Source: a virus (taxonomy: Duplodnaviria > Caudoviricetes). From it: a stretch of 64,000 bases of DNA. The first letter of the stretch is position 1. Each line of letters starts with the position of its first letter. Both the position numbers and the translations under genes were made by a program. Below, one piece after another: positions 9,355 to 30,663 of this stretch. Below the pieces are notes generated by a model. The model was not told the DNA's origin, did not search any database, and was given only the letters and a program-made list of their open reading frames with translations. Location of the stretch: the IMG/VR virus record IMGVR_UViG_3300005336_000019, positions 1-64,000 of that record, one strand, 5' to 3'.

Positions 9355-9663
9355 ATGGCCGAGCTGACCCGCGACACCACGCACTACATCGTCCACTCCA
9401 CGGTCGTCGACCCGGGACCGAACTCCACCTTCGGTACATCGGCACCGATCTCCGGCCCGCACGCCCTGGAGCGGGCGGTCAAGGCCGCGCACGAGGAACT
9501 GAAGGGGCGGCGCCGGGCCTTCGTCACGGCCCGGGATGACGCTTCCCGGATCCTCGCCGTGATCCCGGTCGTGGACTACCCGGTGTTCGGTGACACCCAC
9601 GTCCCCGAGCACGCACAGGACGTCCTCCGGGGCCTGTTCGACGACCTGGACTGGACGGTCTGA
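9355..9663 (+). CDS. hypothetical protein
   Basis: RBS GAGGAG. Confidence 0.8.
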   Translation: MAELTRDTTHYIVHSTVVDPGPNSTFGTSAPISGPHALERAVKAAHEELKGRRRAFVTARDDASRILAVIPVVDYPVFGDTHVPEHAQDVLRGLFDDLDWTV

Positions 9664-9734
9664 CACGGACGAAACCGGGCCCCTGGGAAGGGCTCCCGGT
9701 AGGCGGAACAGGACCGCCCTGACGAGTCCCGTCA
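9661..9734 (+). ncRNA. type II hammerhead ribozyme HH1 (cleavage after GUA, 9701)
   Basis: GGAC-GAAA-stem III CCGGG/CCCGG-UA-stem I GGCGG/CCGCC-CUGACGA-GUCC; all core residues present. Confidence 0.92.
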
Positions 9735-9754
9735 GCACGGAAAGGGAGAAGAAC

Positions 9755-10108
9755 ATGCCGGTGAGCTACGCCTTCAAGAAGCCCGACGGGACCGATCAGG
9801 ACCCGGCCGCCGACCTGAGCCCGGTGCAGCAGGCGTTCCTGGTGCTGAACGAGATGGGAATCGGGATCCCCCGGCTCGACCGCTCCACGCTGGACGAGTT
9901 CGTGCGGCGTGCGGACCTGTTGCAGGCGTACGTCGGCATCGTGTGGCGCAACGGTGACGGAACGCCCCGGATCTTCACCCGGGCGGACTTCACCGAGCTG
10001 CTGCCCGGCGCCCGGACGAACTGGACGGCCCGCAGCAAGCGGGACTTCGACCAGGCCATGAAGAAGGAGATCGACGCGTACTGGAACAGCGTCGACAGTC
10101 GGAAGTGA
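9755..10108 (+). CDS. hypothetical protein (paralog of 18129-18464)
   Basis: Shared GI.R.D..T.DEFVRRADL...Y.G. Confidence 0.85.
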   Translation: MPVSYAFKKPDGTDQDPAADLSPVQQAFLVLNEMGIGIPRLDRSTLDEFVRRADLLQAYVGIVWRNGDGTPRIFTRADFTELLPGARTNWTARSKRDFDQAMKKEIDAYWNSVDSRK

Positions 10109-10117
10109 GGGACGCCT

Positions 10118-10420
10118 GTGGTGGCGGACGAGAAGGGTGACGAGTACGAGGAGACGGCGATCGGCTACGCCATCGGCGTCCTCACGTACATGCAGAACGG
10201 CGGGAAGCTGTCGAGCATCGAGGCGACCGCCTCGGAGATCGTCCGGCTGGCCGGTCGGGAGCTGGCGCAGAAGATGCCGGGCCCGGAGAAGGCCCGAGTG
10301 CTGATGGAGTCCGTCGAGGAGATGCGGCTCCGGCACAACAACCTGAACGCCGACGAGGTGTTCGAGGACATGATGGCGCAGGCGCGGAACGCCGGGCGCC
10401 TTCGGAGCGAGGGGAAGTAG
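10118..10420 (+). CDS. hypothetical protein
   Basis: ORF tiling. Confidence 0.8.
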   Translation: MVADEKGDEYEETAIGYAIGVLTYMQNGGKLSSIEATASEIVRLAGRELAQKMPGPEKARVLMESVEEMRLRHNNLNADEVFEDMMAQARNAGRLRSEGK

Positions 10421-10423
10421 AAC

Positions 10424-10870
10424 GTGGACAGCTTCAGGAACGTGGCCGCCGACGTGGTGACGGCGCACGAGAGCGGGACCTACCGGGCGGGCGCCAACCC
10501 GGCGGCCGATCACGTGGTCGAGGTGATCGGGAAGTACGGCAAGTGGGCGGTGCTCGCCGCCGCCGAGCTGATCAAGGATGACCCGGACACCTTCGAGGAC
10601 ATCCCGGCCGACAAGGTCATGGAGTTCATGGAGGAGAACTACCTGCACTCCGGGGCCACCGTCGGCCACGCGCTGGAGACCTACGCCAAGGACGCCGGGG
10701 ACCACACCGAGCTGGGCCGCCTGTACAACGCGCTCGACAAGGCGGGCGGCGTGGACCGCTTCGACTGGGGCTCGTACGCCGACGACGGCATGACCCCGAC
10801 GATCGGCCTGCACTTCGTCGTGATGCCGGTCCCGGCGGGCGAGTCCGGCACGTTCATCTTCGGGAGCTGA
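10424..10870 (+). CDS. possible ArdA-like C-terminal domain protein
   Basis: FMEENYL...RFDWGSYADD...FIFG resembles the ArdA C-terminal YIDYE.YARD...VF. Confidence 0.45.
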   Translation: MDSFRNVAADVVTAHESGTYRAGANPAADHVVEVIGKYGKWAVLAAAELIKDDPDTFEDIPADKVMEFMEENYLHSGATVGHALETYAKDAGDHTELGRLYNALDKAGGVDRFDWGSYADDGMTPTIGLHFVVMPVPAGESGTFIFGS

Positions 10871-10874
10871 TCAA

Positions 10875-11282
10875 GTGAACGACCTGCTGGACTGGTGGAC
10901 GGTTCCGGGTGCCCGGTGGGGCGTCCGGAACATGGACTTCAAGGTCGAGCTGAAGCGGGACGGGGTGGCCAGCCCGGTCCTGCTGGAGGGATACAGCGAG
11001 GAAGACCTGGCCGCGTTCGACGGCGGGGACTGGCAGTTCGTCATCGTCCGGGTGGTGCCCGTCGACCGGGACCTCACGGACCTGGTGAGCGCCGAACGCT
11101 TCATCCGGGGTGTGGACTGGGGCGACCTGCCGCAGGGCCGCATCGACCGGGAGGACGTGACCGACGCGCAGGTGAAGGAACTGGCCATCGAGTCGGTCCG
11201 GGCTCTGCGCGGCTTCGGGGTCACCGTCGACACGGAGCGGGACAGCGACCTCGCCATCCCGCGCATCACGGCGCCGTTCTGA
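10875..11282 (+). CDS. hypothetical protein
   Basis: ORF tiling. Confidence 0.8.
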   Translation: MNDLLDWWTVPGARWGVRNMDFKVELKRDGVASPVLLEGYSEEDLAAFDGGDWQFVIVRVVPVDRDLTDLVSAERFIRGVDWGDLPQGRIDREDVTDAQVKELAIESVRALRGFGVTVDTERDSDLAIPRITAPF

Positions 11283-11357
11283 ACGAGCCCTGCGGGGCCC
11301 TCGCTGAGGGCCCCGTGGAGTCCGGGTCAGCCCGGTGGAAACGGAAGGGAGAAGAGG

Positions 11358-11567
11358 ATGTTCACGCTGGTGCTGTGCTTCCCGAGGCAGGGGAATCGGC
11401 CTCGGTCGCAGAACTCGGTAACCGCCGGTCACGTGCCGCAGATCGGGTCCACGATCAACACGACGGGCCTGCACTCCGGTACATGGACGGTGCACCACGT
11501 CGGTCAGGACGCCGACGAGGCCACCCTGAGCAACACGGTCTACGTGTACCTGGAGGAGACGGACTGA
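11358..11567 (+). CDS. hypothetical protein
   Basis: RBS CGGAAGGGAGAAGAGG. Confidence 0.75.
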   Translation: MFTLVLCFPRQGNRPRSQNSVTAGHVPQIGSTINTTGLHSGTWTVHHVGQDADEATLSNTVYVYLEETD

Positions 11568-11911
11568 TGGGTCACCGGATCAAGGTCGAGCGGTACGGCG
11601 TCGATCACAGACTGGAGAGCAGCGAGGAGTTCAACGCACCCTCCTGGGAGGGCATCTGGCAGGCCGTCGAGGGCGAGATGGACCGCACCGGGAAAGAGCC
11701 GAGCGGGATGGAGGGCTGGGAGGAGGGCGGCTGCGTCCTGGACCCGGACCACGACTGCGAGGCGGACCCGGCCAAGTGCCAGGAGAACCTGAAGGAAGCG
11801 ATCCGGGACTGGATCAAGTCGGCCTGGGAGCACGACGAGCTGAAGACCGGCAGCTTCCACTTCGGCGGCGTGGACTGGTCGTCGATCACCTTCGGATGGG
11901 ACGGGGAGTAG
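11567..11911 (+). CDS. hypothetical protein
   Basis: TGATG overlap. Confidence 0.8.
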   Translation: MGHRIKVERYGVDHRLESSEEFNAPSWEGIWQAVEGEMDRTGKEPSGMEGWEEGGCVLDPDHDCEADPAKCQENLKEAIRDWIKSAWEHDELKTGSFHFGGVDWSSITFGWDGE

Positions 11912-11914
11912 GGC

Positions 11915-12235
11915 ATGGGCAACGAGGACAAGCTGCGCGTCAAGGAGGCGCCGACCCGGGTGGAAGGGATGCCCGTGATCAAGGGCAGCTTCCTGGGGTG
12001 GCAGCCGAACCTGGTTCTGGCGAAGACGCCGGGCTACTTCGCCTTCGTCATCACATACGACACCAGCCCCGAGCGCAACGGCGACCCGGACGCCTACAAC
12101 GTCCACCTGATGCGGGCCACGTCGCTCGACGGCCGGTGGCTGCGCATCGACAGCCGCCGGGGCCTGTTCCGGAGCGAGGCCGAGGCCGCGTTCAACGAGC
12201 ACGACAAGCTGGCCATCCGGCCGGGGAGGATCTGA
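11915..12235 (+). CDS. hypothetical protein
   Basis: RBS GGGGAG. Confidence 0.8.
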   Translation: MGNEDKLRVKEAPTRVEGMPVIKGSFLGWQPNLVLAKTPGYFAFVITYDTSPERNGDPDAYNVHLMRATSLDGRWLRIDSRRGLFRSEAEAAFNEHDKLAIRPGRI

Positions 12236-12237
12236 GC

Positions 12238-12567
12238 ATGGCAGGCATCCGCATCACCGACCGCGACGGCACGAACGTCCTGCACCCGACGGTGTGGGTC
12301 GACCCGGACGAAGTGCCGGTGATCTTCGTGATCGTGAAGTCCGGGGCGATGGCACTCGCGCACCCGGACTACATCGGCTCGACGCTGTACGACATCGAGC
12401 AGGGTGACCTCCGGATCGAGGAGGCGTGGGACTTCATCCAGGTGAAGACCGAGAAGATGCCGTTCCCCCAGCACTGCCACGTGCGCAGGCTGACCGGCAC
12501 GGGCGGCGGCGCCGAGATCGTCGTCAAGGGTCAGGTCGTGTACCGGATCAGGGGCGTGGACGAGTGA
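12238..12567 (+). CDS. hypothetical protein
   Basis: RBS GGGAGG. Confidence 0.8.
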   Translation: MAGIRITDRDGTNVLHPTVWVDPDEVPVIFVIVKSGAMALAHPDYIGSTLYDIEQGDLRIEEAWDFIQVKTEKMPFPQHCHVRRLTGTGGGAEIVVKGQVVYRIRGVDE

Positions 12568-12878
12568 GCGCCTTCGGCAGGAAGCCCGAGGAGGTCGGCA
12601 AGCGGCCCGAGCCGGGCGCGCTCGACCTGAAGTGGACGTACCTGGGGCCCTACGGCCACAGCGAGTACACCTTCGACATGTACCAGGCGGACGGGTCCGA
12701 CAACCTGTACTTCGTCGACCCGCGCCAGGACCCGCAGCCGTGGGAACTGAGGGACGGCTGCGACGACCTGGCCCTGGACAAGCAGCGCATGACCGAGCTG
12801 CGGGACACACTCACGTACCTGCTGGACAACTGGGGCAGGCCGTGGGCCCGAGAGTCCCACCCGGAAGAGGAGAAGTAA
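12564..12878 (+). CDS. hypothetical protein
   Basis: GTGA overlap. Confidence 0.75.
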   Translation: MSAFGRKPEEVGKRPEPGALDLKWTYLGPYGHSEYTFDMYQADGSDNLYFVDPRQDPQPWELRDGCDDLALDKQRMTELRDTLTYLLDNWGRPWARESHPEEEK

Positions 12879-13214
12879 GTGGCCGAGCTGATCGACATCC
12901 CCAACGTCACCTGCGGGAACGGCCTGCACATGCAGGCGCCAACCCGGGAGCCGGTGTTCCACTTCACGCAGAACGACGGCTTCCACGGGATCATCTACCT
13001 GGACGCCGTGAAGGCGTGGGCACGGGCCATGCGGGAGGACGGGGTCCCCCTGCGGGAGATGGCTCACGACCTCTACGTCCTGCTGCCGGGCAGCCGGGAG
13101 CTGATCCGCTGCACGCTGGTCGTGGCGGACGGGGAGGACGGCCCGGAGATGGAGGTCGAGGCCCTGCGGCCGACGGCCCTGGAGTCGAACACCCTGTACA
13201 CCTGCAAGATCTGA
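12879..13214 (+). CDS. hypothetical protein
   Basis: RBS GAGGAG. Confidence 0.8.
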   Translation: MAELIDIPNVTCGNGLHMQAPTREPVFHFTQNDGFHGIIYLDAVKAWARAMREDGVPLREMAHDLYVLLPGSRELIRCTLVVADGEDGPEMEVEALRPTALESNTLYTCKI

Positions 13215-13287
13215 GCCGGTCGGCTTCCGGGGAGCACGGGCTTCGGTCCGTGCCCCTCGGTGGATCATCGGAACGGAGGAGAAACAG

Positions 13288-13527
13288 ATGCGGTATCGCG
13301 TGTGGACCTACCAGGACGGCGTCGCTCCGCCGGTCGTCCGGGATGCTTCCGGGCGACCGGCTTTCCCGGGCGGCCCCAACCCTGCGAAGGGGGCGCCGGG
13401 CCGGGCTTCCGCGAGGGAGGAGGCTGAAGGACTGTCGGCAGCCGTCGACAGAATCATGCAGCTCATGGAGGGCAACGGCCTGAGCGACGAGGCCGAGAAG
13501 GTCATCGTCCGGGGCAGGGCCACCTAG
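13288..13527 (+). CDS. hypothetical protein
   Basis: RBS GGAGGAG. Confidence 0.7.
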   Translation: MRYRVWTYQDGVAPPVVRDASGRPAFPGGPNPAKGAPGRASAREEAEGLSAAVDRIMQLMEGNGLSDEAEKVIVRGRAT

Positions 13528-13604
13528 GCGCTTCGGGATCACGGCGCCTACCGCACGGCACTTCCGGCACGGGGCCGCTGGGTCCTGGCCGAGGTGGTGA
13601 AGTA

Positions 13605-13877
13605 GTGGCCGGATGGGTTATGCAGATCGGCGAAGACCCTCTCAACATGGTCGTCGCGATGGACTGCTTCACGGTCATGGTCGGTGTTCAGAGCGCCCTG
13701 ATGACGGCCGGTATGCCGCAGTCGCAGGCTCTCGACGCCGCCGAAGAGGCATGGACGACCGTCGAAGAGGGTCGCAACACCTGGACCACCCAGATGGACA
13801 ACGGGGTGGCTCTGAAGGTGTATCGCATGCCGGTATACCGCACGACGGAAACCGGGAACGGAAAGGGGAAGTCATGA
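13605..13877 (+). CDS. hypothetical protein (repeat-domain family)
   Basis: Helix SALMTAG shared in kind with the neighbours. Confidence 0.75.
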   Translation: MAGWVMQIGEDPLNMVVAMDCFTVMVGVQSALMTAGMPQSQALDAAEEAWTTVEEGRNTWTTQMDNGVALKVYRMPVYRTTETGNGKGKS

Positions 13878-14359
13878 GGTACGGAATCACGGTGAACAAC
13901 GGCCGGGTGCTGAGCGGGAACACGGAGGAGGTGAAGGGTCTCATCATCGGCGTCCTGCTGGCCGCCGGGTTCAACGAGCCGGTCTCCGTGCAGGAGAAGG
14001 CGGACGAAGTGCTGCGCCGGGCCGACGCCCTGCCCTCCGACGAGGTGCAGTCGGTGAAGCTGGCCAGCATCGGCGAGATGCTGGTCTGGCGGGAGCGCGG
14101 GCGCCAGGTCCCGAACCGGGCGTACTTCGTGAAGGCCGGGGACCTCGGTCCCGCCTTCCGGGCGACAAGCGAGGCGCCGCTGGTGGCCTACCTGATGGGC
14201 ATCCTGGTCGGCAGCGAGGGCATCGGCCTGGAGCGGTCGGCCGCGCTCGCCGAGGGCGTGGCGCACTGCCTCTCGGAGGGCGGCAGCTACCCCGACCGGG
14301 TCATCACGGAACTGAAGGACGGCAGCAGCCTGCTGGCCTGGTGGGAGGACGAGAAGTGA
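13874..14359 (+). CDS. hypothetical protein, two internal domain repeats
   Basis: ATGA overlap; GVLLAAG and GILVGSEG helices. Confidence 0.8.
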   Translation: MRYGITVNNGRVLSGNTEEVKGLIIGVLLAAGFNEPVSVQEKADEVLRRADALPSDEVQSVKLASIGEMLVWRERGRQVPNRAYFVKAGDLGPAFRATSEAPLVAYLMGILVGSEGIGLERSAALAEGVAHCLSEGGSYPDRVITELKDGSSLLAWWEDEK

Positions 14360-14715
14360 CGCACCACTGGAGCTGGACGGTCCGGGTCAAGCAGGGCGAT
14401 CCGGGATACCGGGTGCACAGCACTGAGGCCCTGATGGCGGCCGTCGCGGGCGCCCTCATGGCAGAGGGCACTGATTCCCGGATGGCCGACACGTTCGCCC
14501 GGTCGGTCCGGGAACGGGCGAACGAACAGTCCCAGCAGCGCCGCATGAACCACGCCACGCCGCCGCTGGAGTACCAGCAGATCCTCGGTGCCACGAAGGT
14601 GCTGCACATCACCTCGGACGACCTCCCGGAGGACCCGGACCGGTACTGCGAGGGCCGCACCGAGTCCGGGAGCCGCTGCCCGAGGCACCTCAACCACCTC
14701 GGGGAGTGCAAGTGA
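14356..14715 (+). CDS. hypothetical protein with C-terminal C/H finger
   Basis: GALMAEG helix; CEGRTESGSRCPRHLNH. Confidence 0.8.
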   Translation: MTHHWSWTVRVKQGDPGYRVHSTEALMAAVAGALMAEGTDSRMADTFARSVRERANEQSQQRRMNHATPPLEYQQILGATKVLHITSDDLPEDPDRYCEGRTESGSRCPRHLNHLGECK

Positions 14716-14939
14716 GGTGGGGTGACGACGCCGACGAGGTCGGCGGCAAGGACCGGAGCTGGATCAACCTGGCTCCGGGGCTGGCGGTCGAGATCGAGTA
14801 CAGCTCGACCAGTTACGAGATGGCGCAGAGCGAGGAAGAGATCGAGGCGAAGCTGACCGGCCAGGTCCGCATCACCCGGGAGAAGATCTTCGCCGCCGAC
14901 TTCCTGATCGACTCGCTGACCGGGGAAGAGAAGGACTGA
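14712..14939 (+). CDS. hypothetical protein
   Basis: GTGA overlap. Confidence 0.7.
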   Translation: MRWGDDADEVGGKDRSWINLAPGLAVEIEYSSTSYEMAQSEEEIEAKLTGQVRITREKIFAADFLIDSLTGEEKD

Positions 14940-14962
14940 TCCGGCCGAGGCTGGCCGGATAC

Positions 14963-15013
14963 CGAGGGGCCCGCTTGACGGCGGGCCCCTTCGCTGTACG
15001 ATGGCCTAGGTCA
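14963..15013 (+). promoter_or_regulatory. hairpin with -35 TTGACG as its loop, -10 TACGAT, operator TGGCCTAGGTCA (15002-15013)
   Basis: GAGGGGCCCGC-TTGACG-GCGGGCCCCTT; 16-nt spacer. Confidence 0.7.
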
Positions 15014-15028
15014 AGGAAAGGGAGAAGC

Positions 15029-15487
15029 GTGAAGGCCATCGAATTCCCGGATGCGCTCCGGGAGTTGAAGATCGAAGGCGCCTCGGTGAAACCGGCCGAG
15101 GGCAAGCCAGGTTCCGGTGTGGAGCACGGCTTCATCGTCACGGGCCAGCATGGCGCCCGCATCGCCTGGCAGGTGGCCACGCAGGAGGACGGCCTGATGG
15201 CCGGTACCGGAAACCCTGCCGCCTACCCATCGGCCGTGGCCGCCGCTCCCGACAGGCTCGTCTGCGCCGACGTCGAGGCGTCCATCGCCTGCTGGATCGG
15301 CCAGAACCTCGGTGAGCACATCAGCGAGATCGTCCGGTACAGCGAGACCCGGGACCGGGGCATCCGCTACGGCCTGCGGCTCGACCTGTACAGCGGGGGC
15401 CGGGTGTTCATCCAGGCCCTGTGGATTCTGGAGCCCGGAGAGGAACCGAACCGGGACAACAAGTACCGCATGCGCAACGCGGTCTGA
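15029..15487 (+). CDS. hypothetical protein
   Basis: RBS GGAAAGGGAGAAG. Confidence 0.8.
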   Translation: MKAIEFPDALRELKIEGASVKPAEGKPGSGVEHGFIVTGQHGARIAWQVATQEDGLMAGTGNPAAYPSAVAAAPDRLVCADVEASIACWIGQNLGEHISEIVRYSETRDRGIRYGLRLDLYSGGRVFIQALWILEPGEEPNRDNKYRMRNAV

Positions 15488-15502
15488 AGAAGGAGAAGAC
15501 GG

Positions 15503-18045: not shown

Positions 18046-18128
18046 TCCGGCTTCGGCTCGGCGGCGCACGGGCTCTGGTCCGTGCGTCTGCCGTACTGCC
18101 GCCGGGCAGGGAATCGGAAGGGGAAGAG

Positions 18129-20487: not shown

Positions 20488-20970
20488 ATGCTGGACGCCG
20501 ACCTCGTCCACGAGACGGGACACTTCAGCTACGCCGACGCCGAGCACCTGGCTGACCTGTGGAACCGGGCCTACCCGGCGATGCGGCAGATCATCACCCG
20601 GTACATCGAGAGCCAGCGGGAGTACATCGAGCGGAGGGGCTGGGTCATCGACCCGAATCACCCCCACGCCGAAGTGCTCCAGGAGCGCGCCACCCCGGAA
20701 CGGAAGGCCCGGTACCGGCTGAAGCTGTCGGAAGAGCTGCGCCGGGACCTCGGCCAGCTCGACCGGGGCACGCACAAGCCGTGCACCCGCAGCCCGGGAT
20801 GCTTCTCGGTGACGGCCGCCTACATGGCGGTGCGGAGCCTGATCAGTCACAGCTCCCTCAACAGTGAGGGGCTGGCCAACATCTACCGCCTGGCCGCCGA
20901 TCTGGCCGAGGCGGAGGAGCGGGTCAACGAGGCCCGCAAGAAGTGGCACCAGGAACAGGAGAAGAAGTGA
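20488..20970 (+). CDS. hypothetical protein
   Basis: ORF tiling. Confidence 0.8.
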   Translation: MLDADLVHETGHFSYADAEHLADLWNRAYPAMRQIITRYIESQREYIERRGWVIDPNHPHAEVLQERATPERKARYRLKLSEELRRDLGQLDRGTHKPCTRSPGCFSVTAAYMAVRSLISHSSLNSEGLANIYRLAADLAEAEERVNEARKKWHQEQEKK

Positions 20971-21209
20971 ACGCAGAAGTCGAGGTCCCCGTCGCCGAGA
21001 GCATCGCCGTGGGTCTGGCGATCGTCTTCTCGGATCTTCCGCAGAGCACCATCACGTGGATGTCCGAGCTGATGGTGCGCACCTGGCACGAGGGGCCGGA
21101 CCGCTCCGACGACCTGCTCTTCAACGCCCTCGACAAGGAGGTCCGGGCGGGCAACGAGGACGCCATCCGCATGGTCCTCGCCGCCGCCCGGCGCGGTCTG
21201 AAGGTCTGA
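20967..21209 (+). CDS. hypothetical protein (paralog of 21308-21529)
   Basis: FSDLPQSTITWM...VRAGNEDAI. Confidence 0.8.
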   Translation: MNAEVEVPVAESIAVGLAIVFSDLPQSTITWMSELMVRTWHEGPDRSDDLLFNALDKEVRAGNEDAIRMVLAAARRGLKV

Positions 21210-21279
21210 CTCCGAGGCCGAAACCCCTGGAAGGGGGTCGTGGGACGAATGGAAGTCCCGCCTGACGATGGCCGTCAGA
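21205..21279 (+). ncRNA. type II hammerhead ribozyme HH2 (cleavage after GUC, 21239)
   Basis: GGCC-GAAA-CCCC/GGGG-UC-stem I GUGGGAC/GUCCCGC-CUGACGA-U-GGCC; outer stem UCUGAC/GUCAGA. Confidence 0.93.
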
Positions 21280-21307
21280 AGAATTCGGAACGGGAGGAGA
21301 ACGCATC

Positions 21308-21529
21308 ATGGAACTGCCCAACCGCGCCGAGGTGCGCAGCCAGATCAGCTCGAAGTTCCCGGGCCTGCCCAACGACACCCTGGACTGGGTGGCGGGCATG
21401 CTCTCCGACAAGATCGAGGCCGACTGGCAGACCGCCGACGCCGAGTTCCACCGCGAGATGGAGCGCGCGATCCGGGCCGGTGAAGAGCACGCGATCCTCG
21501 TGGCCCTCGCCGCGCTCAAGGCCGTCTGA
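21308..21529 (+). CDS. hypothetical protein (paralog of 20967-21209)
   Basis: FPGLPNDTLDWV...IRAGEEHAI. Confidence 0.8.
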   Translation: MELPNRAEVRSQISSKFPGLPNDTLDWVAGMLSDKIEADWQTADAEFHREMERAIRAGEEHAILVALAALKAV

Positions 21530-22420: not shown

Positions 22421-22882
22421 ATGCCGCTGATCTGGACTCAAGGGAACCTGCTGGAGTCGGCGGCGCAAGGACTGGTCAGCCCGGTCAACTGCGTCGGCGT
22501 GCCGGGTGCCGGGCTGGCCCGGCAATTCAAGGACCGCTGGCCCATGCAGGTCGAGGAGTACGTGACCTTCTGCCGGGAGGGCCGGATGAAGCCCGGCCTG
22601 GTGCACGATGCACTTCTGCCGGACGGGCGCCGGATCCTGAGCATCGCCACCAAGCGGCACTGGCGGGACAACTCACGGATCGAGGACGTGGATCGGGGGC
22701 TGGCCGCTCTGAAGGAGTACCTGGACGAGACGGGCCTGATCTCGGTCGCTCTCCCGGCGCTCGGCTGCGGGCTGGGCGGCCTGCCGAAGGCTCTCGTAGC
22801 CCGGCGGGTGCAGTTCTGGCTGGCCGACAATTTCTCCGTGGTCTACGTCTACGGGCTCGACGAGCCGGAGGTGTCGGCGTGA
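22421..22882 (+). CDS. macrodomain ADP-ribosylglycohydrolase (DarG/TARG1-like)
   Basis: GNLLE...VNCVGVPGAGLARQFK...TKRHWR...ALPALGCGLGGL. Confidence 0.9.
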   Translation: MPLIWTQGNLLESAAQGLVSPVNCVGVPGAGLARQFKDRWPMQVEEYVTFCREGRMKPGLVHDALLPDGRRILSIATKRHWRDNSRIEDVDRGLAALKEYLDETGLISVALPALGCGLGGLPKALVARRVQFWLADNFSVVYVYGLDEPEVSA

Positions 22883-23096: not shown

Positions 23097-23702
23097 ATGG
23101 CGATGACCCGCGAAGAGGAGACGGCGCTGGCGAAGGAGATGGCCGAGGAGATGGGCCTGAACCTGCCGTACGCCGCCCAGGTGGGCTTCGAGTACGACGT
23201 GAAGGCGGCCCGGCAGAAGGCCGAGGAACTGCGAGACCTGGCCCGCAGGCGGGAGCAGGAGTCGCGCGACTCGTTCGATCGGTGCGACACGGACGGCGCC
23301 CTCTCGCAGTGGGCGAGCGGGATCAACGCCGAGAAGTACCGGCTCCAGGCCGACATCGTCGAGAACGGCGGCATGTGGTACTTCCCGGCCCTCTTCGACC
23401 TGGAGGGCAACCTGGTTCCGGCCCGGGAGGCGTACGGCCAGTACGGATCCTTCTGGTCTCTGCTGGACGCCGACGGGAACCGCACCGGCCAGACCTTCAA
23501 CGAGTCGAAGGCCCAGAACGACAAGGTGAAGATCCGCAACGATGCCCGGAAGGGCTACTACGTCGGCTCGGTTCTGGCCCCGGCCAGAGTCGTGACGCGC
23601 GGCCAGTCCGTCACCTCGGTCGCCTGCCACATCGACCGGAACGACGGCGGCTGGGACCCGGACGTGATGGTGCTCGACAACGGGAAGGGCGAGCAGGAGT
23701 GA
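23097..23702 (+). CDS. actinophage-type hypothetical protein (SFDRCDTDG.LSQWA family)
   Basis: Recognisable motif; RBS AGGAG. Confidence 0.85.
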   Translation: MAMTREEETALAKEMAEEMGLNLPYAAQVGFEYDVKAARQKAEELRDLARRREQESRDSFDRCDTDGALSQWASGINAEKYRLQADIVENGGMWYFPALFDLEGNLVPAREAYGQYGSFWSLLDADGNRTGQTFNESKAQNDKVKIRNDARKGYYVGSVLAPARVVTRGQSVTSVACHIDRNDGGWDPDVMVLDNGKGEQE

Positions 23703-24759: not shown

Positions 24760-24779
24760 CCAGGGCGAGTTCGATCAGA

Positions 24780-24796
24780 TACAGTGGCCTAGGTCA
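24780..24796 (+). promoter_or_regulatory. -10 TACAGT plus operator TGGCCTAGGTCA
   Basis: Palindrome family. Confidence 0.7.
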
Positions 24797-24812
24797 GGGA
24801 AGGAGGAAAGAC

Positions 24813-24896
24813 ATGGCAGAGAAGCTGCCCCAGCGCGAGCCGGGGAAGGCCCTCAAGGAGGCGCGCGAGCGCGAAGAGGGCCAGGGTCAGCGATGA
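24813..24896 (+). CDS. 27-aa peptide MAEKLPQREPGKALKEAREREEGQGQR
   Basis: Perfect SD AAGGAGG, own promoter and downstream hairpin. Confidence 0.7.
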   Translation: MAEKLPQREPGKALKEAREREEGQGQR

Positions 24897-24901
24897 CCTT
24901 C

Positions 24902-24926
24902 AGGGGGCGCCCGACGGGCGCCCCCT
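24902..24926 (+). terminator. GC-rich hairpin
   Basis: AGGGGGCGCCC-GAC-GGGCGCCCCCT. Confidence 0.55.
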
Positions 24927-24962
24927 CATTGATGCAGTGATCGGAACAGGAGAGAGAGACCC

Positions 24963-25397
24963 ATGGAGTTCCACGAGCGCTTCGCCGAGAAGGCTGCCGA
25001 CACCGACTACTCCCGCTACCCCCAGCTCCAGGCGCTGAGCAAGTACGACATCAACGCGACGGCCGAGGCTCTGCGCCTGACCGCGATCCAGCTCGGCACC
25101 CACGTGCGCGGGTGGGGCATGCTGGACGACCTGACGCTCGACGAGCCGACGGTCATCACGGCCCTGCTGGCGCTGAAGCGGCGCTGGGACGACGAGGGGC
25201 ACCTGGTCTCGGTCGACTTCGAGGAGTACTGGGACGCCACCGACACCCACAACTTCCCCTCCTCCCTGCTGGAGGAGATGAAGCGCCACCTCGTCCGCCA
25301 GTTCCTGGAGGGCAAGAAGGCCGAGCACGTCGCGGTCAGCAACCCGTACGGGATCTGGCTGTTCGACAAGGCCGTCCTGGAGGGGATCTTCAAGTGA
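24963..25397 (+). CDS. hypothetical protein
   Basis: RBS AGGAGA. Confidence 0.8.
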   Translation: MEFHERFAEKAADTDYSRYPQLQALSKYDINATAEALRLTAIQLGTHVRGWGMLDDLTLDEPTVITALLALKRRWDDEGHLVSVDFEEYWDATDTHNFPSSLLEEMKRHLVRQFLEGKKAEHVAVSNPYGIWLFDKAVLEGIFK

Positions 25398-25678
25398 TCG
25401 ACTCCCTCTCGAACCTGCCGACCGGGGTCAACGAGCTGTACCCCAACTGGCAGGCCGCCTTCGCCGAGATCACCGTCCGCCCCCGGGAGGATGCGGGTCG
25501 GAAGCCGGAGATGCCCCTGCTCTCCCGTGGGCACTGCTTCGCGGACGACCGGGGTGACGTCTGGACGGTCCTTCGCGCTACCGTCGTGACGGAGACCGAC
25601 GAGTTCAGCGGTGACGAGCTTCCATACCGCTACGCCTACGTCTACGAGGTCGTGAGCGGCAGGCGTCAGCTCGACTGA
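25394..25678 (+). CDS. hypothetical protein
   Basis: GTGA overlap. Confidence 0.75.
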   Translation: MIDSLSNLPTGVNELYPNWQAAFAEITVRPREDAGRKPEMPLLSRGHCFADDRGDVWTVLRATVVTETDEFSGDELPYRYAYVYEVVSGRRQLD

Positions 25679-25684
25679 GCCACC

Positions 25685-25757
25685 CAAGGGGCGGCCCCGG
25701 ATCGGGGTCGCCCCTTGTTGTGTTTCCAGCGTGACCTAGGCCGGTTGATGATAGACT
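25685..25757 (+). promoter_or_regulatory. terminator hairpin, operator TGACCTAGGCCG (25732-25743) and -10 TAGACT
   Basis: CAAGGGGCGGCCCCG/CGGGGTCGCCCCTTG followed by a T-rich tract. Confidence 0.7.
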
Positions 25758-25779
25758 CCCGTGCACGGAAGGAGAGGAA

Positions 25780-26274
25780 ATGGCAAACGACTTGGTGAGA
25801 TTCCCGGAGGCCGGGGATCACTGGGAGGAGATACCGGGGCCCGGCATGTACGTGCTGGCGGTTCTCCCCAGGAAGGCTGAGCCCGACCAGTGCGCCGTGG
25901 GCGCCGCCATCCTCATGCTGCGCCCACAGGGGCGCCTGCTCACCCCGGTCGACCCGCTGTGGCCGACGGAGGAGAGCCGGAACTACGACGCCAGCCTGCT
26001 GGAGGAGGCGGCACAGCTCTTCGAGGAGAGGGGCGAGCGGGTCAAGGCCGCGACGATACGGGCCCAGTTCCCCACCACGGACCTGTCGGTCGAGGTCGTC
26101 CAGGCCACACACATGGGCTCGACAGCGCGCACCCTGCGCAGCACGAAGACCGGCGAGTACTGGCAGGCCCGATGGGAAGACCTCACGCCGTCCGGAATCC
26201 TGCACCTGCACCAGATCCACACCTGCTTCGTACGGCCGCCCGTACTGATCACGTTCCTGGGGGACGAGGACTGA
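25780..26274 (+). CDS. hypothetical protein
   Basis: RBS AAGGAGAGG. Confidence 0.8.
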   Translation: MANDLVRFPEAGDHWEEIPGPGMYVLAVLPRKAEPDQCAVGAAILMLRPQGRLLTPVDPLWPTEESRNYDASLLEEAAQLFEERGERVKAATIRAQFPTTDLSVEVVQATHMGSTARTLRSTKTGEYWQARWEDLTPSGILHLHQIHTCFVRPPVLITFLGDED

Positions 26275-26654
26275 TGAAGCTGTTCGGCAAGAAGAAGCCG
26301 GAAGACGAGAAGCCGCCGACCGGCCAGAGGCCCCGCATCCGGGGGCACGTCGAAGCGTTCTACGTCCAGCGGGCGTCGGAGGCATTCATCGAGGTCATCA
26401 TGAAGGCTTCCGACGCGCAGCGCCCCGGCAGGATCGGAGCCGACCACAGTTCCGACGTGGACCGGGCACAGGTGCTGGAGGCTGCCGTCTCGGTGGCCGC
26501 TCTGCACTGCAACGAAGATCTGCTTTCCCGGCTGTACTCCTTCCGGGACGCCGTGCTCGAACTCACCATGGGCGGCGGCTCGGAAGCCGAAGTACGCGCC
26601 ACCCGAGAGCACTTCACGAAGGGGTGCCGGGAAGCGCTCGGCACCGACCAGTAG
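26274..26654 (+). CDS. hypothetical protein
   Basis: TGATG overlap. Confidence 0.8.
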   Translation: MKLFGKKKPEDEKPPTGQRPRIRGHVEAFYVQRASEAFIEVIMKASDAQRPGRIGADHSSDVDRAQVLEAAVSVAALHCNEDLLSRLYSFRDAVLELTMGGGSEAEVRATREHFTKGCREALGTDQ

Positions 26655-26675
26655 AACCGGAGAGGGAGAAGAGCA

Positions 26676-27191
26676 GTGCGACTCATGCACCAGCACGACC
26701 TGGGCGGACCGGGCCGGGTGATCGTCATGGCAGGTGACCTCCCCGTCACCATCACGGTCGACGAACGGGCCGAGTACCGCTCGGTGGACGTCCTGGCCGA
26801 TCGCGGCCTGGCCGCCTGGGCAGGACCCATCGGCCCGGGAGGCGTCTCGTTCGGGGTCGAGGTCGGCAGGCCCACCCTGATCAACACCCTGCGCGACAAG
26901 CTGGGTCTGCGTATGGGTACCTCAGTGTCCGGCGGCGGCTCGGTCTCCTCGTCCGGGCGCGGCTCGATCGCGGCCGGGGGGAGCATCGTCAACTGTGCCA
27001 CCGGCCGGGGTGCGAAGGTCACCGTGAGCGGAGCGGAGCAGAAGCAGCCGGAGGTCGGCGTACATCTGACTGTTCCCAGGCTGTGCATCTTCGAGATCCG
27101 GTCCCACGGCGGCATCCGCGTTCTGCACGACGGTATCGAGCTGTCCTTCCAGGCGGCCGAGGAGCGCGGGCTTCTGGCGGCGGCCCGATGA
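26676..27191 (+). CDS. hypothetical protein
   Basis: RBS CGGAGAGGGAGAAGA. Confidence 0.8.
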   Translation: MRLMHQHDLGGPGRVIVMAGDLPVTITVDERAEYRSVDVLADRGLAAWAGPIGPGGVSFGVEVGRPTLINTLRDKLGLRMGTSVSGGGSVSSSGRGSIAAGGSIVNCATGRGAKVTVSGAEQKQPEVGVHLTVPRLCIFEIRSHGGIRVLHDGIELSFQAAEERGLLAAAR

Positions 27192-27406
27192 TCTCGGCGG
27201 TCGGCGACTTCCTCGTGGAGCGGTTCCCCGGAGCGGGCCCGAACCGCCGGGTGGCACGCATCGTCAGCAGCCAGCCGGAGGAGGGGCGCCTTCGGGTGTC
27301 CCGGACCGTCCAGGCGGGAGGCCGTCGCTACACGGTGGCCTTCCACTTCCCTCCCGGCATCCGGCAGGGCCGGGCCATCGCCTGGCCGAGGGAGGCGGAG
27401 CGCTGA
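27188..27406 (+). CDS. hypothetical protein
   Basis: ATGA overlap. Confidence 0.65.
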   Translation: MISAVGDFLVERFPGAGPNRRVARIVSSQPEEGRLRVSRTVQAGGRRYTVAFHFPPGIRQGRAIAWPREAER

Positions 27407-27831
27407 TGAGCCTGCGCCAGGAAGCCGAAGCACTGTTCTTCGGAGTCGGAGTCCAGGAGCTGTACGGCCACTGGTCCTGGGCCGACCGGGGCTCGATGTT
27501 CATTCGGTTCGGCGAGTGGGAGCCGGGCCAGGCGCCCGACACCTGGGCCTACCGGGTTCACGCACCTCACCCGCTTGACAGTGATCGCCGGATCGACAAG
27601 GTGATCACGTACTCGGTGCTGTACACAGCAGCCGAGCTGATCGCCTACGAGAACGCCGACACCGAGAAGCCGTTCCACCCGCCGAGCGAAGAAACCGGTC
27701 GAGCCTGTTCCATGTGGGTCTTCAGCGACGAACTCGGCACGTTCGACCCTCACACTCTGGACCAGGTTCTCCAGGTTGCCGTGTTCGGCGGCGTGAAGTA
27801 CCCCCACTTCGAGCCCCGCAACCGGGGCTGA
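27406..27831 (+). CDS. hypothetical protein
   Basis: TGATG overlap. Confidence 0.8.
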   Translation: MSLRQEAEALFFGVGVQELYGHWSWADRGSMFIRFGEWEPGQAPDTWAYRVHAPHPLDSDRRIDKVITYSVLYTAAELIAYENADTEKPFHPPSEETGRACSMWVFSDELGTFDPHTLDQVLQVAVFGGVKYPHFEPRNRG

Positions 27832-27849
27832 CGGAAAGCGAGAAGAGAC

Positions 27850-28179
27850 GTGAAGCACGAGTTCGCCATCGACTACGCCGGGCTCACTCCGCAGCAGAAG
27901 CTCGTGATTCTGGAGGAGATGGGATTCAAGGAGATTCCGCCCTCCGAGCACGGCACGAACTGTCTGTCCCGGCAGGGCAGCGGCATCATCTGCGACTGTC
28001 TCCAGGGCGTGACGACCTGGGGCGCTCCGCAGGACGTGAAGAAGTACCTGGGCGAGACGCACGAGGAACGCGCCGAGTTTGCGGCCCGGCGCCAGCTCTA
28101 CCTGAACGAGGGCGAGGGTGAGAGCCCCGGATCCTGGATCTATCACCTGGAGAAGAACGCCCCCCGCTACTGGCACTGA
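27850..28179 (+). CDS. hypothetical protein
   Basis: Purine-rich RBS. Confidence 0.8.
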   Translation: MKHEFAIDYAGLTPQQKLVILEEMGFKEIPPSEHGTNCLSRQGSGIICDCLQGVTTWGAPQDVKKYLGETHEERAEFAARRQLYLNEGEGESPGSWIYHLEKNAPRYWH

Positions 28180-28194
28180 GGAACGGAGAAGAGC

Positions 28195-28497
28195 ATGGCG
28201 AAGATCGATGTGAACGAGGTCCAGGGCCTCTTCCGGGTCGGTCTGGCCACGGACCAGAAGGGCAACGAGGTCTACGTGCTGGAGATCCTGGGGATCCCGG
28301 TTCTGTACGCCGACGCCCACGAGTTCGAGGCGGGCCACCAGGACGCCGAGGACTGGCAGGAGACCTTCGAGACGCGACTGGCCCGGATGCTGGCCAAGGT
28401 GCTGACGGAGGGCTACGACCACGACTTCGTGAAGTGGCGCACCGAATCGCCGACCGGCCGTGACGTGTACCGCCTCGGCCCCTTCGGGGAGTCGTGA
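28195..28497 (+). CDS. hypothetical protein (tandem paralog 1)
   Basis: VLEILGIPV motif. Confidence 0.8.
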   Translation: MAKIDVNEVQGLFRVGLATDQKGNEVYVLEILGIPVLYADAHEFEAGHQDAEDWQETFETRLARMLAKVLTEGYDHDFVKWRTESPTGRDVYRLGPFGES

Positions 28498-28769
28498 TGG
28501 ACGCCATCCGGATCGGGAAGACCGAGGAGAACGGCCAGCCCCTGATCGTCGTCGAGCTGTTCGGTGTTCCGCTGGCCAGTTCGGTGCACAAGGTCGCCGA
28601 GTACGACGAGGACCCCGAAGGGTTCACGAAGTGGTGGCGGGAGTACTTCGCCCGTCAGATCGTCAGCATGCTGGCGGAGGAACTGCACCAGGAGCGCCGG
28701 GTCACCGGCTGGCTGATGGCCACGAGGCTGTCACCGAGGCCGCCCGGCCTGCCGGTGGAGGAGGCGTGA
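28494..28769 (+). CDS. hypothetical protein (tandem paralog 2)
   Basis: VVELFGVPL motif. Confidence 0.8.
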   Translation: MMDAIRIGKTEENGQPLIVVELFGVPLASSVHKVAEYDEDPEGFTKWWREYFARQIVSMLAEELHQERRVTGWLMATRLSPRPPGLPVEEA

Positions 28770-29050
28770 ACCCCGAACTGTTCAAGGCGGGAAGCGTCGA
28801 GCTGCCGAACGGCGGGTGCATCACCGTCGTGGAATTCATGGGGCATCCGATCGCCGAGGGCCCGGCCGAGGCCCTGGATGGCGAGGGTGCGGCCGAGAGG
28901 GTTCAGGAGGCTTTCTGTGCTGCTCTCGTCGCCGCCCTGTCCATGGTGATGGGGAGCGAGCAGTTCGGCCGGTACGCGCCCAGGGAGTGGACGTACTGGC
29001 ACCCGATGGCCCCGCCCCTGGCGAGGCTTCCGAAGGGAGAAGAGGGATGA
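28766..29050 (+). CDS. hypothetical protein (tandem paralog 3)
   Basis: VVEFMGHPI motif. Confidence 0.8.
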   Translation: MNPELFKAGSVELPNGGCITVVEFMGHPIAEGPAEALDGEGAAERVQEAFCAALVAALSMVMGSEQFGRYAPREWTYWHPMAPPLARLPKGEEG

Positions 29051-29295
29051 AGGGAATGGACGGGCAGCTCATGCGAGCCGTGGCCCGGCTCCACGACGAC
29101 GAGCTGGAAACCCGGCGCCGCTGGGCCCAGCACATCCGGGAGGAGTTCGGGAAGTACCACGACCACTCCGGCGGCGGCGAGTGCGGCGCCTGCGGGGCGA
29201 TCCAGGCGGCGAACTGGATGGACCCGGACTATGTCAAGGATGGCCCGCTGGCGGAGCCGTTCGGGACCTGGCGGGACCGTCACCCCAGCATGTGA
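29047..29295 (+). CDS. hypothetical protein
   Basis: ATGA overlap. Confidence 0.75.
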   Translation: MKGMDGQLMRAVARLHDDELETRRRWAQHIREEFGKYHDHSGGGECGACGAIQAANWMDPDYVKDGPLAEPFGTWRDRHPSM

Positions 29296-29296
29296 T

Positions 29297-29366
29297 CTGA
29301 CCAGAGGCCGAAACCGGGCAGCCAGCCCGGTCGTGCAGTGAGACTGCACCTGACGATGGCCGTCAG
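29297..29366 (+). ncRNA. type II hammerhead ribozyme HH3 (cleavage after GUC, 29332)
   Basis: GGCC-GAAA-CCGGGC/GCCCGG-UC-stem I GUGCAG/CUGCAC-CUGACGA-U-GGCC; outer stem CUGAC/GUCAG. Confidence 0.93.
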
Positions 29367-29382
29367 TGAGAGAGGAAGGGTG

Positions 29383-29577
29383 ATGGCGAAGCGACAGAAG
29401 ACGGTGGACTCGGTCTACGACTGGGCCGCCCGTCATGATGTACCGGCACCCGACGCCTTCGCGGTGAGCCACGTCGGGCTCGACGGTCACGACAGGCTTC
29501 TCAGGCTGGCCGCTGCGCGCTGGCGCCGCCTGGTGGCGACGAAGAAGACGGGCTTCCCGCTCATCGACGGGGACTGA
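29383..29577 (+). CDS. hypothetical protein
   Basis: RBS GAGGAAGG. Confidence 0.7.
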   Translation: MAKRQKTVDSVYDWAARHDVPAPDAFAVSHVGLDGHDRLLRLAAARWRRLVATKKTGFPLIDGD

Positions 29578-29637
29578 AGCAGCTCGGAAGGTGTCCGGAA
29601 GCCGGGCGAACTGATTCGGAAGGGACGAGGAAGAGGC

Positions 29638-30114
29638 ATGGAACTCACGGAACCGAAGCGTGGCGACAAGGTCGTCTACCAGGGACAGCTCCGCACGATC
29701 GAGGGGTTCGACGAGGATCACGGCACCCACCTGGGGATGGGCGCCTGGATCTCGATCAACGAGTACGAGAAGAACGGTGATGGTGTGTGGGTTCGCGCCG
29801 ATTCGCCCCGTACCTACCTGATCGGCGAGCCCTACGAGAACTACCGCTCCTCGCGCACGGGTGTCGCCGTGATCCGGCCCGCCGTCTACCAGAGGGGCAG
29901 CACGGAGAAGGTCATCACCACCTCCCCCTGCTGCACCCTGAACGTCCGGCACCTCAACTACGCGGACGTCAACTCCGACCTGGCCAAGAGGACCGGCGGC
30001 TGGAGCGAGACGTGCACGCAGTGCGGCTGGCACTACGCGGTCTCCCTCGTCTCCCAGACCAACGACCCCCGCCTCGGCCTGTACGGCGTGCGCTGGGAGT
30101 CCAAGGGGTTCTGA
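29638..30114 (+). CDS. hypothetical protein
   Basis: RBS GAGGAAGAGG. Confidence 0.8.
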   Translation: MELTEPKRGDKVVYQGQLRTIEGFDEDHGTHLGMGAWISINEYEKNGDGVWVRADSPRTYLIGEPYENYRSSRTGVAVIRPAVYQRGSTEKVITTSPCCTLNVRHLNYADVNSDLAKRTGGWSETCTQCGWHYAVSLVSQTNDPRLGLYGVRWESKGF

Positions 30115-30129
30115 AAGGGTCGAATCAAC

Positions 30130-30663
30130 ATGAATCAGGCACAACAGCAGGAAGCGGAGATCTTCGACGTTGACGGCACCCTGTGCGACGTCAGCAGCGT
30201 GCGCCACTACGTCACTCCTCCGAACCGCGACTTCCACTCCTTCCACATGGCTTCCGCCTTCTGCCCGCCACACCCCGAGGTAGTCGAGCGGGTGCACGAG
30301 GCCAAGGCGAAAGGCCGGGCCGTCCTCGTAGTGACCGCCCGCATGGCCCGGTACCGGACCCTCACCCGGAAGTGGCTGGAGAGCTGCCAGATCCCGTTCG
30401 ACAGCATCTGGACGCGGGCGAACGACGACTTCCGCAAGGACGCGATCGTGAAGCGGGAGATCCTGGCGAAGATCCGGGCCAACGGGTTCGTCGTGATGAA
30501 GGCGCACGACGACAACCCGGCCGTGGTCGAGGTCTGGGAGGACGAGGGGATCGAGACCAAGATCGTGCCCGGCTGGGACGATCAGTTCACTGGCCTCCTG
30601 CTGCCGCAGGACGGCTTGACCGTGGTCAGGGAGTCTGACCGCATCGGAAAGGGAGAGAAGTGA
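30130..30663 (+). CDS. HAD phosphatase resembling the T4 PNK 3'-phosphatase domain
   Basis: FDVDGTL, VTAR, D.RKD..VK, DDNP.VV..W motifs. Confidence 0.85.
   Translation: MNQAQQQEAEIFDVDGTLCDVSSVRHYVTPPNRDFHSFHMASAFCPPHPEVVERVHEAKAKGRAVLVVTARMARYRTLTRKWLESCQIPFDSIWTRANDDFRKDAIVKREILAKIRANGFVVMKAHDDNPAVVEVWEDEGIETKIVPGWDDQFTGLLLPQDGLTVVRESDRIGKGEK

Follow-up and report, generated by a model that had tools for sequence, protein, structure and literature searches.

Introduction

What three hammerhead ribozymes, set one by one between the small same-strand genes of a phage, do for the messages in which they lie is the question raised by the DNA analysed here, the first 64 kb (the window) of a 76.5-kb viral record, IMG/VR IMGVR_UViG_3300005336_000019 (Duplodnaviria; Caudoviricetes), whose completeness is estimated at about 40%. 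The window has a G+C content of 67%, and its positions 9000-31000 match six Streptomyces phage genomes of about 185 kb each (Kela, JustBecause, Satis, Kradal, Quantum, and EhyElimayoE) at 81-83% identity. The equivalent region in those genomes is a long series of small same-strand genes, almost all annotated as hypothetical, and the GenBank records of Satis, Kela, and JustBecause hold only lines for coding sequences (CDS), with no RNA feature at the hammerhead sites.

Natural type II hammerheads, often clustered around prophage genes, were described in 2011 together with the proposal that they process long phage transcripts into gene-length mRNAs (PMC3088659). Although no small ribozyme has been studied more than the hammerhead, a review from 2019 still called its role in bacteria and phages undefined (PMC6765202), three type II copies near phage-like genes of Desulfovibrio vulgaris have been reported from cyPhyRNA-seq to cleave in vivo (PMC8782182), and a 2026 paper refers to the hammerheads of DNA phages as something described earlier. 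An original prediction for the present locus, made from its letters alone, placed three such elements in an early gene array, where they would cut their own multi-gene message, and noted an RNA end-healing enzyme nearby. The follow-up presented here leads to a best explanation that we consider probable overall, in which cis-acting type II hammerheads in multi-gene phage mRNAs would cut between cistrons and a hairpin would form afterwards from the tail of each spent ribozyme. We set out below the evidence for the ribozymes, their conservation and placement, the unusual tail, and the alternatives.

Three type II hammerheads in the window

Judged by sequence, the three elements are real type II hammerheads with predicted cleavage sites:

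9660-9735, + strand: HH1, type II hammerhead, recognised by descriptor, minimum-free-energy (MFE) fold, covariance model R1, and orthologs
21206-21278, + strand: HH2, type II hammerhead, recognised by descriptor, MFE fold, model R1, and orthologs
29297-29366, + strand: HH3, type II hammerhead, recognised by descriptor, MFE fold, a subthreshold Rfam score, and orthologs

Their common 5′ half consists of CUGAC, a bulge of 2-5 nucleotides (nt), a 4-bp stem II strand, GAAA, and a capped stem III, and their common 3′ half of U and a non-G base (H17), a capped stem I, CUGACGA, in some copies a U, the 3′ strand of stem II, and GUCAG. The core of the class, C3-U4-G5-A6-N7-G8-A9 with G12-A13-A14, is present in all three copies (as CUGACGA and GAAA), and so are the A15.1-U16.1 pair, the non-G H17, and the G10.1-C11.1 pair that closes stem II. 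The topology is that of type II, with loops capping stems I and III and stem II opening to the flanks, and in the window copies a 5-bp outer helix, CUGAC/GUCAG, is added to stem II. HH1 has stem II GGAC/GUCC, stem III at 9675-9700, stem I at 9702-9718, and its core at 9719-9725; HH2 and HH3 have stem II GGCC/GGCC, cores at 21262-21268 and 29350-29356, respectively, and, alone among the three, one additional U between A9 and G10.1. MFE folding yields the three-way junction in every copy (z = -2.07, -2.32, and -4.03). Cleavage is predicted after A9701 in HH1, C21239 in HH2, and C29332 in HH3, at GUA, GUC, and GUC, and the new 5′ ends first proposed (9702, 21240, and 29333) agree with these sites.

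Reading of the sequence and a descriptor search both bear out the original account of three + strand type II elements with a CUGACGA core and an outer stem. Its further statement, that stems I and III differ completely in sequence yet stay paired, holds for the covariation and is too strong on the difference, as HH1 and HH3 share CCGGG/CCCGG in stem III. The descriptor, which required CUGANGA, GAAA, an A15.1-U16.1 pair, an H17 other than G, and minimum stem lengths of 4/3/4 bp, matched exactly three times on the two strands of the window and at the same three places in the whole 76.5-kb record. In 200 shuffles that preserved the dinucleotides of the window it matched once altogether.

The check with Rfam hammerhead models that had been put forward with the prediction scored all three copies and placed none at the gathering threshold, the bit scores against RF02276 (Hammerhead_II) being 31.7 for HH3, 24.6 for HH2, and 16.6 for HH1 relative to a threshold of 37, which belongs to one curated model built on the pseudoknot form and does not define the class biochemically. 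At gathering level Rfam returned 11 matches, all to tRNA and none to a hammerhead, and a permissive Rfam scan of 9000-31000 gave one hammerhead match and four chance matches to unrelated families. A search of the whole record with RF02276 did not pick up HH2 and gave a further match at 6847-6900 (13.3 bits), which was discarded, being confirmed neither by the descriptor nor by R1. MAFFT aligned the three copies poorly, and R1 was therefore built from equal-length homologs, as a covariance model of 23 HH3-like sequences that include HH3 of the window. It separates all three copies from background: HH3, which is in the training set, scores 87.1 bits, HH2 and HH1, both outside it, score 53.6 bits (E = 4e-13) and 23.7 bits (E = 1.2e-4), and the next-best match, at 19.3 bits, is without the core.

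Conservation in Streptomyces phages and in a wider phage family

Kela and JustBecause each carry orthologs of HH1, HH2, and HH3, while Satis carries an HH1 ortholog and two HH3-type copies and has no HH2, which makes three copies per phage in the same array. HH3 orthologs occur in all six related phage records, and HH1 orthologs also in IMG/VR contigs from the same phage group. The cores are thus conserved in related genomes, as the original prediction supposed, in orthologs (Kela, JustBecause, and Satis) that include compensatory changes. In the HH2 orthologs of Kela and JustBecause, stem II reads GACC/GGUC where the window has GGCC/GGCC, and an A-U pair of stem I has become G-C; the HH3-type copies have stems I and III very different in sequence with pairing retained. 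H17 at the HH1 site of the four phages is A, U, U, and C, and never G. In HH2-type copies the stem II bulge could pair with loop I, as UCC/GGA in the window and one contig and as CCC/GGG in Kela, JustBecause, and one contig, a change seen across five sequences and representing at most one event; for HH3 nothing comparable was seen. This pattern of conservation makes HH2 and HH3 very likely active and HH1 likely so, with less certainty than the other two.

Three pattern scans of IMG/VR returned 90, 85, and 96 stretches, and among the 80 loci fetched from each a full hammerhead was present in 51, 76, and 68, respectively. Stem II was fixed by the search patterns, apart from GACC/GGUC variants, and each GGUC 3′ strand was paired with a GACC 5′ strand. 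BLAST found close look-alikes in cultured Burkholderia phages and another Streptomyces phage, and a scan of bacterial genomes gave 15 stretches across several phyla. In an alignment of 114 sequences that was fitted to the model, which raises pairing counts, 99.0% of stem cells are paired compared to 68.9% in shuffles and doubly changed cells number 500 compared to 162, values that none of 500 shuffles reaches; changes on both sides occur in 14 of the 17 stem pairs. H17 is C in 107 of these sequences, A in five, U in two, and G in none. By these measures the window copies belong to a widespread phage subfamily with strong covariation in stems I and III. One low-GC IMG/VR contig has five hammerheads of the same subfamily within about 2.2 kb, each preceding a tiny open reading frame (ORF), an extreme case of the same punctuation.

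Position between stop codon and ribosome-binding site

The genes that flank the three ribozymes are the following:

9355-9663, + strand: ORF upstream of HH1 (102 aa), its stop UGA (9661-9663) within the outer-stem CUGAC
9755-10108, + strand: ORF downstream of HH1 (117 aa), with ribosome-binding site (RBS) GGAAAGGGAG in the 19-nt spacer after the hammerhead
20943-21209, + strand: ORF upstream of HH2 (88 aa), its stop UGA (21207-21209) within the outer-stem CUGAC
21308-21529, + strand: ORF downstream of HH2 (73 aa); its Satis ortholog directly follows the upstream stop, no hammerhead between
28816-29295, + strand: ORF upstream of HH3 (159 aa), its stop (29293-29295) ending 1 nt before the outer stem
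29383-29577, + strand: ORF downstream of HH3 (64 aa from ATG), with an in-frame GTG at 29380

A search of these six genes against PHROG found nothing, and Pfam has no match for the ORFs upstream of HH1 and HH2 or downstream of HH3. Each hammerhead lies between a stop codon and the next RBS, as first read, with its 3′ edge 13-29 nt from the next start codon in the three window copies. The layout of stop codon and outer stem can now be given more exactly, the stop of HH1 and HH2 lying inside the outer stem and that of HH3 just before it. Derived from CDS ends, hammerhead coordinates, and window ORFs, the count across the four Streptomyces phages is 11 of 12 copies with UGA inside the 5′ CUGAC as the upstream stop, HH3 of the window being the exception.

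A related placement extends to the family: of 129 unique members preceded by an open frame of 40 codons or more, 97 have the stop of that frame starting 2-15 nt before stem II, most commonly as a UAG that supplies stem II with its first base, the G, and the next start codon is mostly 17-31 nt past stem II. Of 26 members with a 5′ CUGAN copy, 17 have as their stop a UGA located 7-13 nt before stem II.

A tail complementary to the catalytic core

The five bases that follow stem II (N′UCAG) are complementary to core positions C3-N7, and N′ covaries with N7. With G8 pairing to the last C of stem II, this gives a hairpin of 6 bp with a 5-nt loop (-7.0 kcal/mol), a geometry that HH1 preserves despite its different stem II:

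9719-9735, + strand: HH1 alternative hairpin, core C3-G8 with CGUCAG, 6 bp, 5-nt loop, -7.0 kcal/mol alone
21262-21278, + strand: HH2 alternative hairpin, CUGACG, loop AUGGC, CGUCAG, predicted in the 3′ product
29350-29366, + strand: HH3 alternative hairpin, CUGACG, loop AUGGC, CGUCAG, proposed from energy and family covariation

When the tail was left free in the search, unique sequences with N7 = C had the tail GUCAG in 43 of 73 cases, and those with N7 = U had AUCAG in 13 of 46 and GUCAG in none; CUCAG accompanied N7 = G in one of seven and UUCAG accompanied N7 = A in one of ten, so that all 58 NUCAG tails are complementary to C3-U4-G5-A6-N7. On the 114-row alignment the N7-N′ combinations are C-G 49, U-A 26, U-G 7, A-U 2, G-C 2, and other 26, with 30 doubly changed cells compared to 14.4 +/- 2.6 in shuffles (0 of 500 reaching the observed value), and among bacterial-genome matches in which both positions were free 12 of 15 are Watson-Crick, all these counts being inflated by related sequences. 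The same stem I sequences occur with both N7 states, which suggests repeated events without proving them.

Pairing of the tail with the core is incompatible with the catalytic fold and so must represent an alternative state. Folding of the 3′ products predicts the tail hairpin for HH1 and HH2, with the RBS left open; the MFE structure of the HH3 3′ product does not use it. Of 53 members with a perfect hairpin, 29 have a 5′ CUGAN copy near stem II and 23 have no such partner within 75 nt. Nearest-neighbour energies favour the active over the core-sequestered fold by 1.5-2.8 kcal/mol in HH2 and HH3 of the window; in the family the median difference is -2.0 kcal/mol with an outer stem, where 22 of 29 members favour the active fold, and +1.3 kcal/mol without one, where 6 of 24 do. 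It is possible, and we hold it tentatively, that the subfamily is naturally bistable, with the tail hairpin as an off-state or product trap, and that in the Streptomyces phage group the stop-codon CUGAC competes for the tail, so that terminating ribosomes could choose the fold or drive release.

Proposed processing of phage transcripts

Hammerhead cleavage leaves a 2′,3′-cyclic phosphate and a 5′-OH. In the processing that we favour, the three-way junction would form after transcription, in the Streptomyces phage group with the 5′ CUGAC pairing to GUCAG so that stem II is lengthened and the active fold favoured before cutting, and the RNA would then cut itself past the NUH site. The upstream message would end in the stem III hairpin with its cyclic phosphate, and the downstream message would start with a 5′-OH and the stem I hairpin. 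After the halves separate, GUCAG would fold back on CUGACG, and the additional hairpin formed in this way, immediately before the free RBS, may lock the cut by blocking re-pairing and religation. The downstream cistron would gain a defined, structured 5′-OH leader independent of the sequence upstream, and the stability and translation of neighbouring cistrons would be uncoupled. RNase E and RNase J prefer 5′-monophosphate ends, and we infer that the 5′-OH end and the stem I hairpin could protect the downstream cistron. Self-processing of a multi-gene transcript is plausible and is the standard reading, proposed earlier for clustered prophage hammerheads.

Several observations weigh against this account. 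All three copies fall under Rfam's curated threshold, and the family alignment carries the bias from model fitting stated above. Among the HH1 orthologs, U/U replaces the G10.1-C11.1 pair in Kela and JustBecause, stem II has a bulge in Satis, and compensatory change was not seen in the HH1 lineage, which together are the reason for grading HH1 lower. HH2 is absent from Satis and hence dispensable there. The tail is missing in about a quarter of family members, and a tree of the short sequences gives eight changes per state with only one independent N7/N′ pair on supported branches, in a tree-aware test that is underpowered and carries no significance. The outer stem makes stem II 9 bp long, a duplex of about -11 kcal/mol, which would slow product release; separation of the halves may therefore need help, for which a ribosome terminating on the UGA inside the stem is a candidate. 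Finally, a 253-nt contig from an RNA library bridges the HH1 site (9564-9815), and could represent uncut RNA or carried-over DNA. The RNA evidence comes from one RNA-Seq run (Logan contigs), with 0.17 of the sampled words; it yielded no usable starts or ends, and contigs cannot show ends.

Two parts of the original prediction concerning the transcript are unsupported. The label "early" has nothing behind it, and the idea of a single transcript gives way to an array that is probably more than one transcription unit, given a strong hairpin between HH2 and HH3:

25685-25717, + strand: intrinsic-terminator-like hairpin between HH2 and HH3, 15 bp (12 G-C), with a T-rich tail

A promoter scan gave one site where 1.2 were expected and is uninformative. 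A second strong hairpin lies at 24891-24943 (a chance Rfam "mir-612" match). Many other + strand gaps of the array have a long GC-rich imperfect stem-loop, then 15-25 nt, and then an RBS: those at 3773-3859, 5076-5154, and 5503-5636 share a motif around the hairpin, and further stem-loops lie at 2264-2396, 6985-7059, 8920-8995, 11283-11357, 13215-13287, and 18046-18128. Model R1 excludes these as hammerheads; possible roles are RNase III-type processing, stabilisation, or attenuation.

Alternative explanations

A different use of the same parts would make the hammerhead a translation-sensitive switch, its tail pairing either with the 5′ CUGAC (active) or with the core CUGAC (inactive), while the outer stem and stem II would be opened by ribosomes that terminate on the UGA, so that cutting or release tracks upstream translation. 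The nearly isoenergetic folds of HH2 and HH3, the shift in median energy between members with and without an outer stem, and the position of the UGA both in the phage group and in members with a 5′ copy are all consistent with such a device, as is the way the 5′ copy follows N7, CUGAU occurring with AUCAG and the column pair comprising 14 U-A and 42 C-G. However, the energies leave out tertiary contacts and kinetics; the outer stem was rejected as a family-wide feature (55.3% paired compared to 52.3% in shuffles); any intergenic element adjoins a stop codon in compact phage genomes; and Satis retains the ...CUGAC stop context at the HH2 position, with an RBS and start codon directly after it and no hammerhead, so that CUGAC may merely be the end of the gene. 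We regard the switch as unlikely, if deserving of some weight.

Less probable again, though not negligible, is that the hammerheads chiefly link exchangeable gene cassettes or travel with them as passengers, with RNA cutting of little consequence and the conserved 17-20 nt of core, stem II, and tail serving as short homologies for the gain, loss, and duplication of small genes. Comparison with relatives offers this idea its material. HH2 is a clean presence/absence difference, missing from Satis at 23585-23611 (versus window 21216-21295) with both neighbours orthologous. Satis 31167-31550 has two HH3-type copies 312 nt apart around one extra small gene (CDS 248), where only one is present in the window, Kela, and JustBecause. 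The homology shared by window and Satis restarts exactly at the first base of HH1 (about 9659), and in a relative's contig from the RNA-Seq run 20955-21205 is replaced, the first base of HH2 marking the right border. Other viral contigs also hold multi-copy clusters, such as the five copies in 2.2 kb. In three comparisons a mosaic border thus falls at the edge of a hammerhead, but phage gene borders are mosaic junctions anyway, and the coincidence may reflect only ordinary gene-border mosaicism because the ribozyme starts at the stop codon. A linker, moreover, needs none of the compensatory change by which the core, the NUH site, and three helices are kept across very different phages.

That the motifs are inactive look-alikes or decaying relics we consider very improbable. 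The subthreshold Rfam scores would fit such a view, as would the HH1 lineage, devoid of compensatory change and with a defective 10.1/11.1 pair in some relatives, but three matches in the window compared to one in 200 shuffles, orthologs with compensatory changes, and family-wide covariation argue against it.

A last possibility arises from the gene 764 nt downstream of HH3, which the original prediction correctly took for a PNK-type HAD phosphatase:

30130-30663, + strand: stand-alone PNKP-type HAD 3′-phosphatase domain (177 aa, motif DVDGT; PF25109, phrog_415)

It scores 66.2 bits against PF25109 (cut-off 27.6) and E = 4.7e-39 against phrog_415, and it aligns to residues 161-294 of T4 polynucleotide kinase (1ltq) and to the isolated phosphatase domain 5uj0, with its DVDGT motif aligned to both. 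The HAD phosphatase domain and the motif are thus common to the phage protein and T4 Pnkp, but the window protein is the phosphatase domain only, no 5′-kinase domain being found in its 177 aa (the alignment is limited to 1ltq 161-294, and there is no kinase match in Pfam). Pfam found no RNA ligase, kinase, or RNase among 123 crude window ORFs, a rough GC3-based set that includes some antisense calls. RtcB (PF01139) is absent from all four phage records searched (the 76.5-kb record and complete Kela, Satis, and JustBecause), host RtcB not having been examined. An ORF of the RNA_ligase family (PF09414, about 300 aa) is present in Kela (86372-86959, − strand) and JustBecause (86492-87079, − strand), about 57 kb away, and absent from Satis and from the record of the window. 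The synteny of phosphatase and hammerheads is confined to one phage group and reflects shared ancestry there, so that the functional tie originally drawn between them is unsupported.

T4-type phosphatase and ligase are the usual answer to host tRNA nucleases, and 11 tRNA genes are clustered at 50299-52997 (− strand) of the window; by analogy with T4, a role of the phosphatase in tRNA repair would be at least as likely as action on ribozyme ends. That the cut ends are healed and rejoined, the phosphatase removing the cyclic or 3′ phosphate and a ligase joining or circularising the RNA, is accordingly most improbable of all, the nearby phosphatase and the ligase-family ORF of Kela and JustBecause being offset by the missing kinase domain, by the absence of RtcB from the four phage records, by the distance or absence of the PF09414 ORF, and by Perreault et al. 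(PMC3088659), who report having looked for spliced or circular products and detected none. The RtcB ligation or circularisation suggested originally is thus unsupported.

Other genes of the window include a Macro-domain protein between HH2 and HH3 (22421-22882, + strand; PF01661, E = 4.3e-12; phrog_335 "phosphatase"), at whose counterpart position the relatives are annotated with an ADP-ribosyltransferase, and, on the opposite strand, genes for a TerD-domain protein (38251-38967, − strand), a cold-shock-domain protein (47537-47743, − strand), and a DnaB-type helicase (58081-59442, − strand).

Relation to known systems and significance

The cis-acting cleavage proposed here for the window resembles the RNase III sites of T7 early genes, where cutting between cistrons yields messages that end in hairpins and have fates of their own, but a hammerhead needs no protein and leaves 5′-OH and cyclic phosphate ends rather than 5′-P and 3′-OH; the array also holds many long intergenic hairpins as possible sites for a protein nuclease. 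In RiboJ-type insulators the RBS is preceded by a self-cleaving hammerhead and then a hairpin, so that the downstream gene always receives the same leader, regardless of the upstream sequence. The element of the window differs in being natural and of type II, and its hairpin would be made from the spent catalytic core and not from added sequence.

The closest precedent shares with the window copies the catalytic core and topology, with stems I and III capped and stem II open (RF02276), the occurrence of several same-orientation copies around single genes or short blocks of phage genes, and the proposed role in cutting long phage transcripts (PMC3088659). In its consensus, loop I and the 3′ tail form a pseudoknot, whereas in the window copies the tail complements the core and covaries with N7; stem II is here 4 bp of GGCC type plus the 5-bp outer helix of the phage group, an extra U follows A9 where noted, and scores against RF02276 are below threshold. 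The D. vulgaris case is likewise one of three type II copies near hypothetical or phage-like genes, with 5′-OH and 2′,3′-cyclic phosphate ends observed in vivo there (PMC8782182), but its host belongs to another phylum and its copies lie at separate loci rather than in one array, the comparison made here being one of published descriptions.

The class, its topology, its phage context, and the idea of transcript processing all date from 2011 (PMC3088659), and such ribozymes are to be expected in phages. Two features go beyond the original prediction, the covarying core-pairing tail and the upstream stop codon inside the outer helix. In the literature covered, which is incomplete so that an earlier description is possible, no account of hammerheads in Streptomyces phages was found. 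The core-pairing tail and the stop-codon overlap are likewise undescribed as far as could be found, and the main text of the 2011 report has no "stop codon", "ribosome", "translation", or "Shine-Dalgarno" (PMC3088659), but these features too may have been described before.

The locus offers a cultured and tractable system, in that Satis, Kela, and JustBecause grow on S. lividans or S. scabiei, and these Streptomyces phages provide three sites that are conserved, a natural presence/absence control in the lack of HH2 from Satis, and a duplication that arose naturally. The family-wide order of stop codon, ribozyme, and RBS, together with the core-pairing tail, yields hypotheses that can be tested with mutants on how RNA self-cutting might set the fate of neighbouring cistrons, and the tail hairpin suggests a natural counterpart of the ribozyme-plus-hairpin insulators of synthetic biology.

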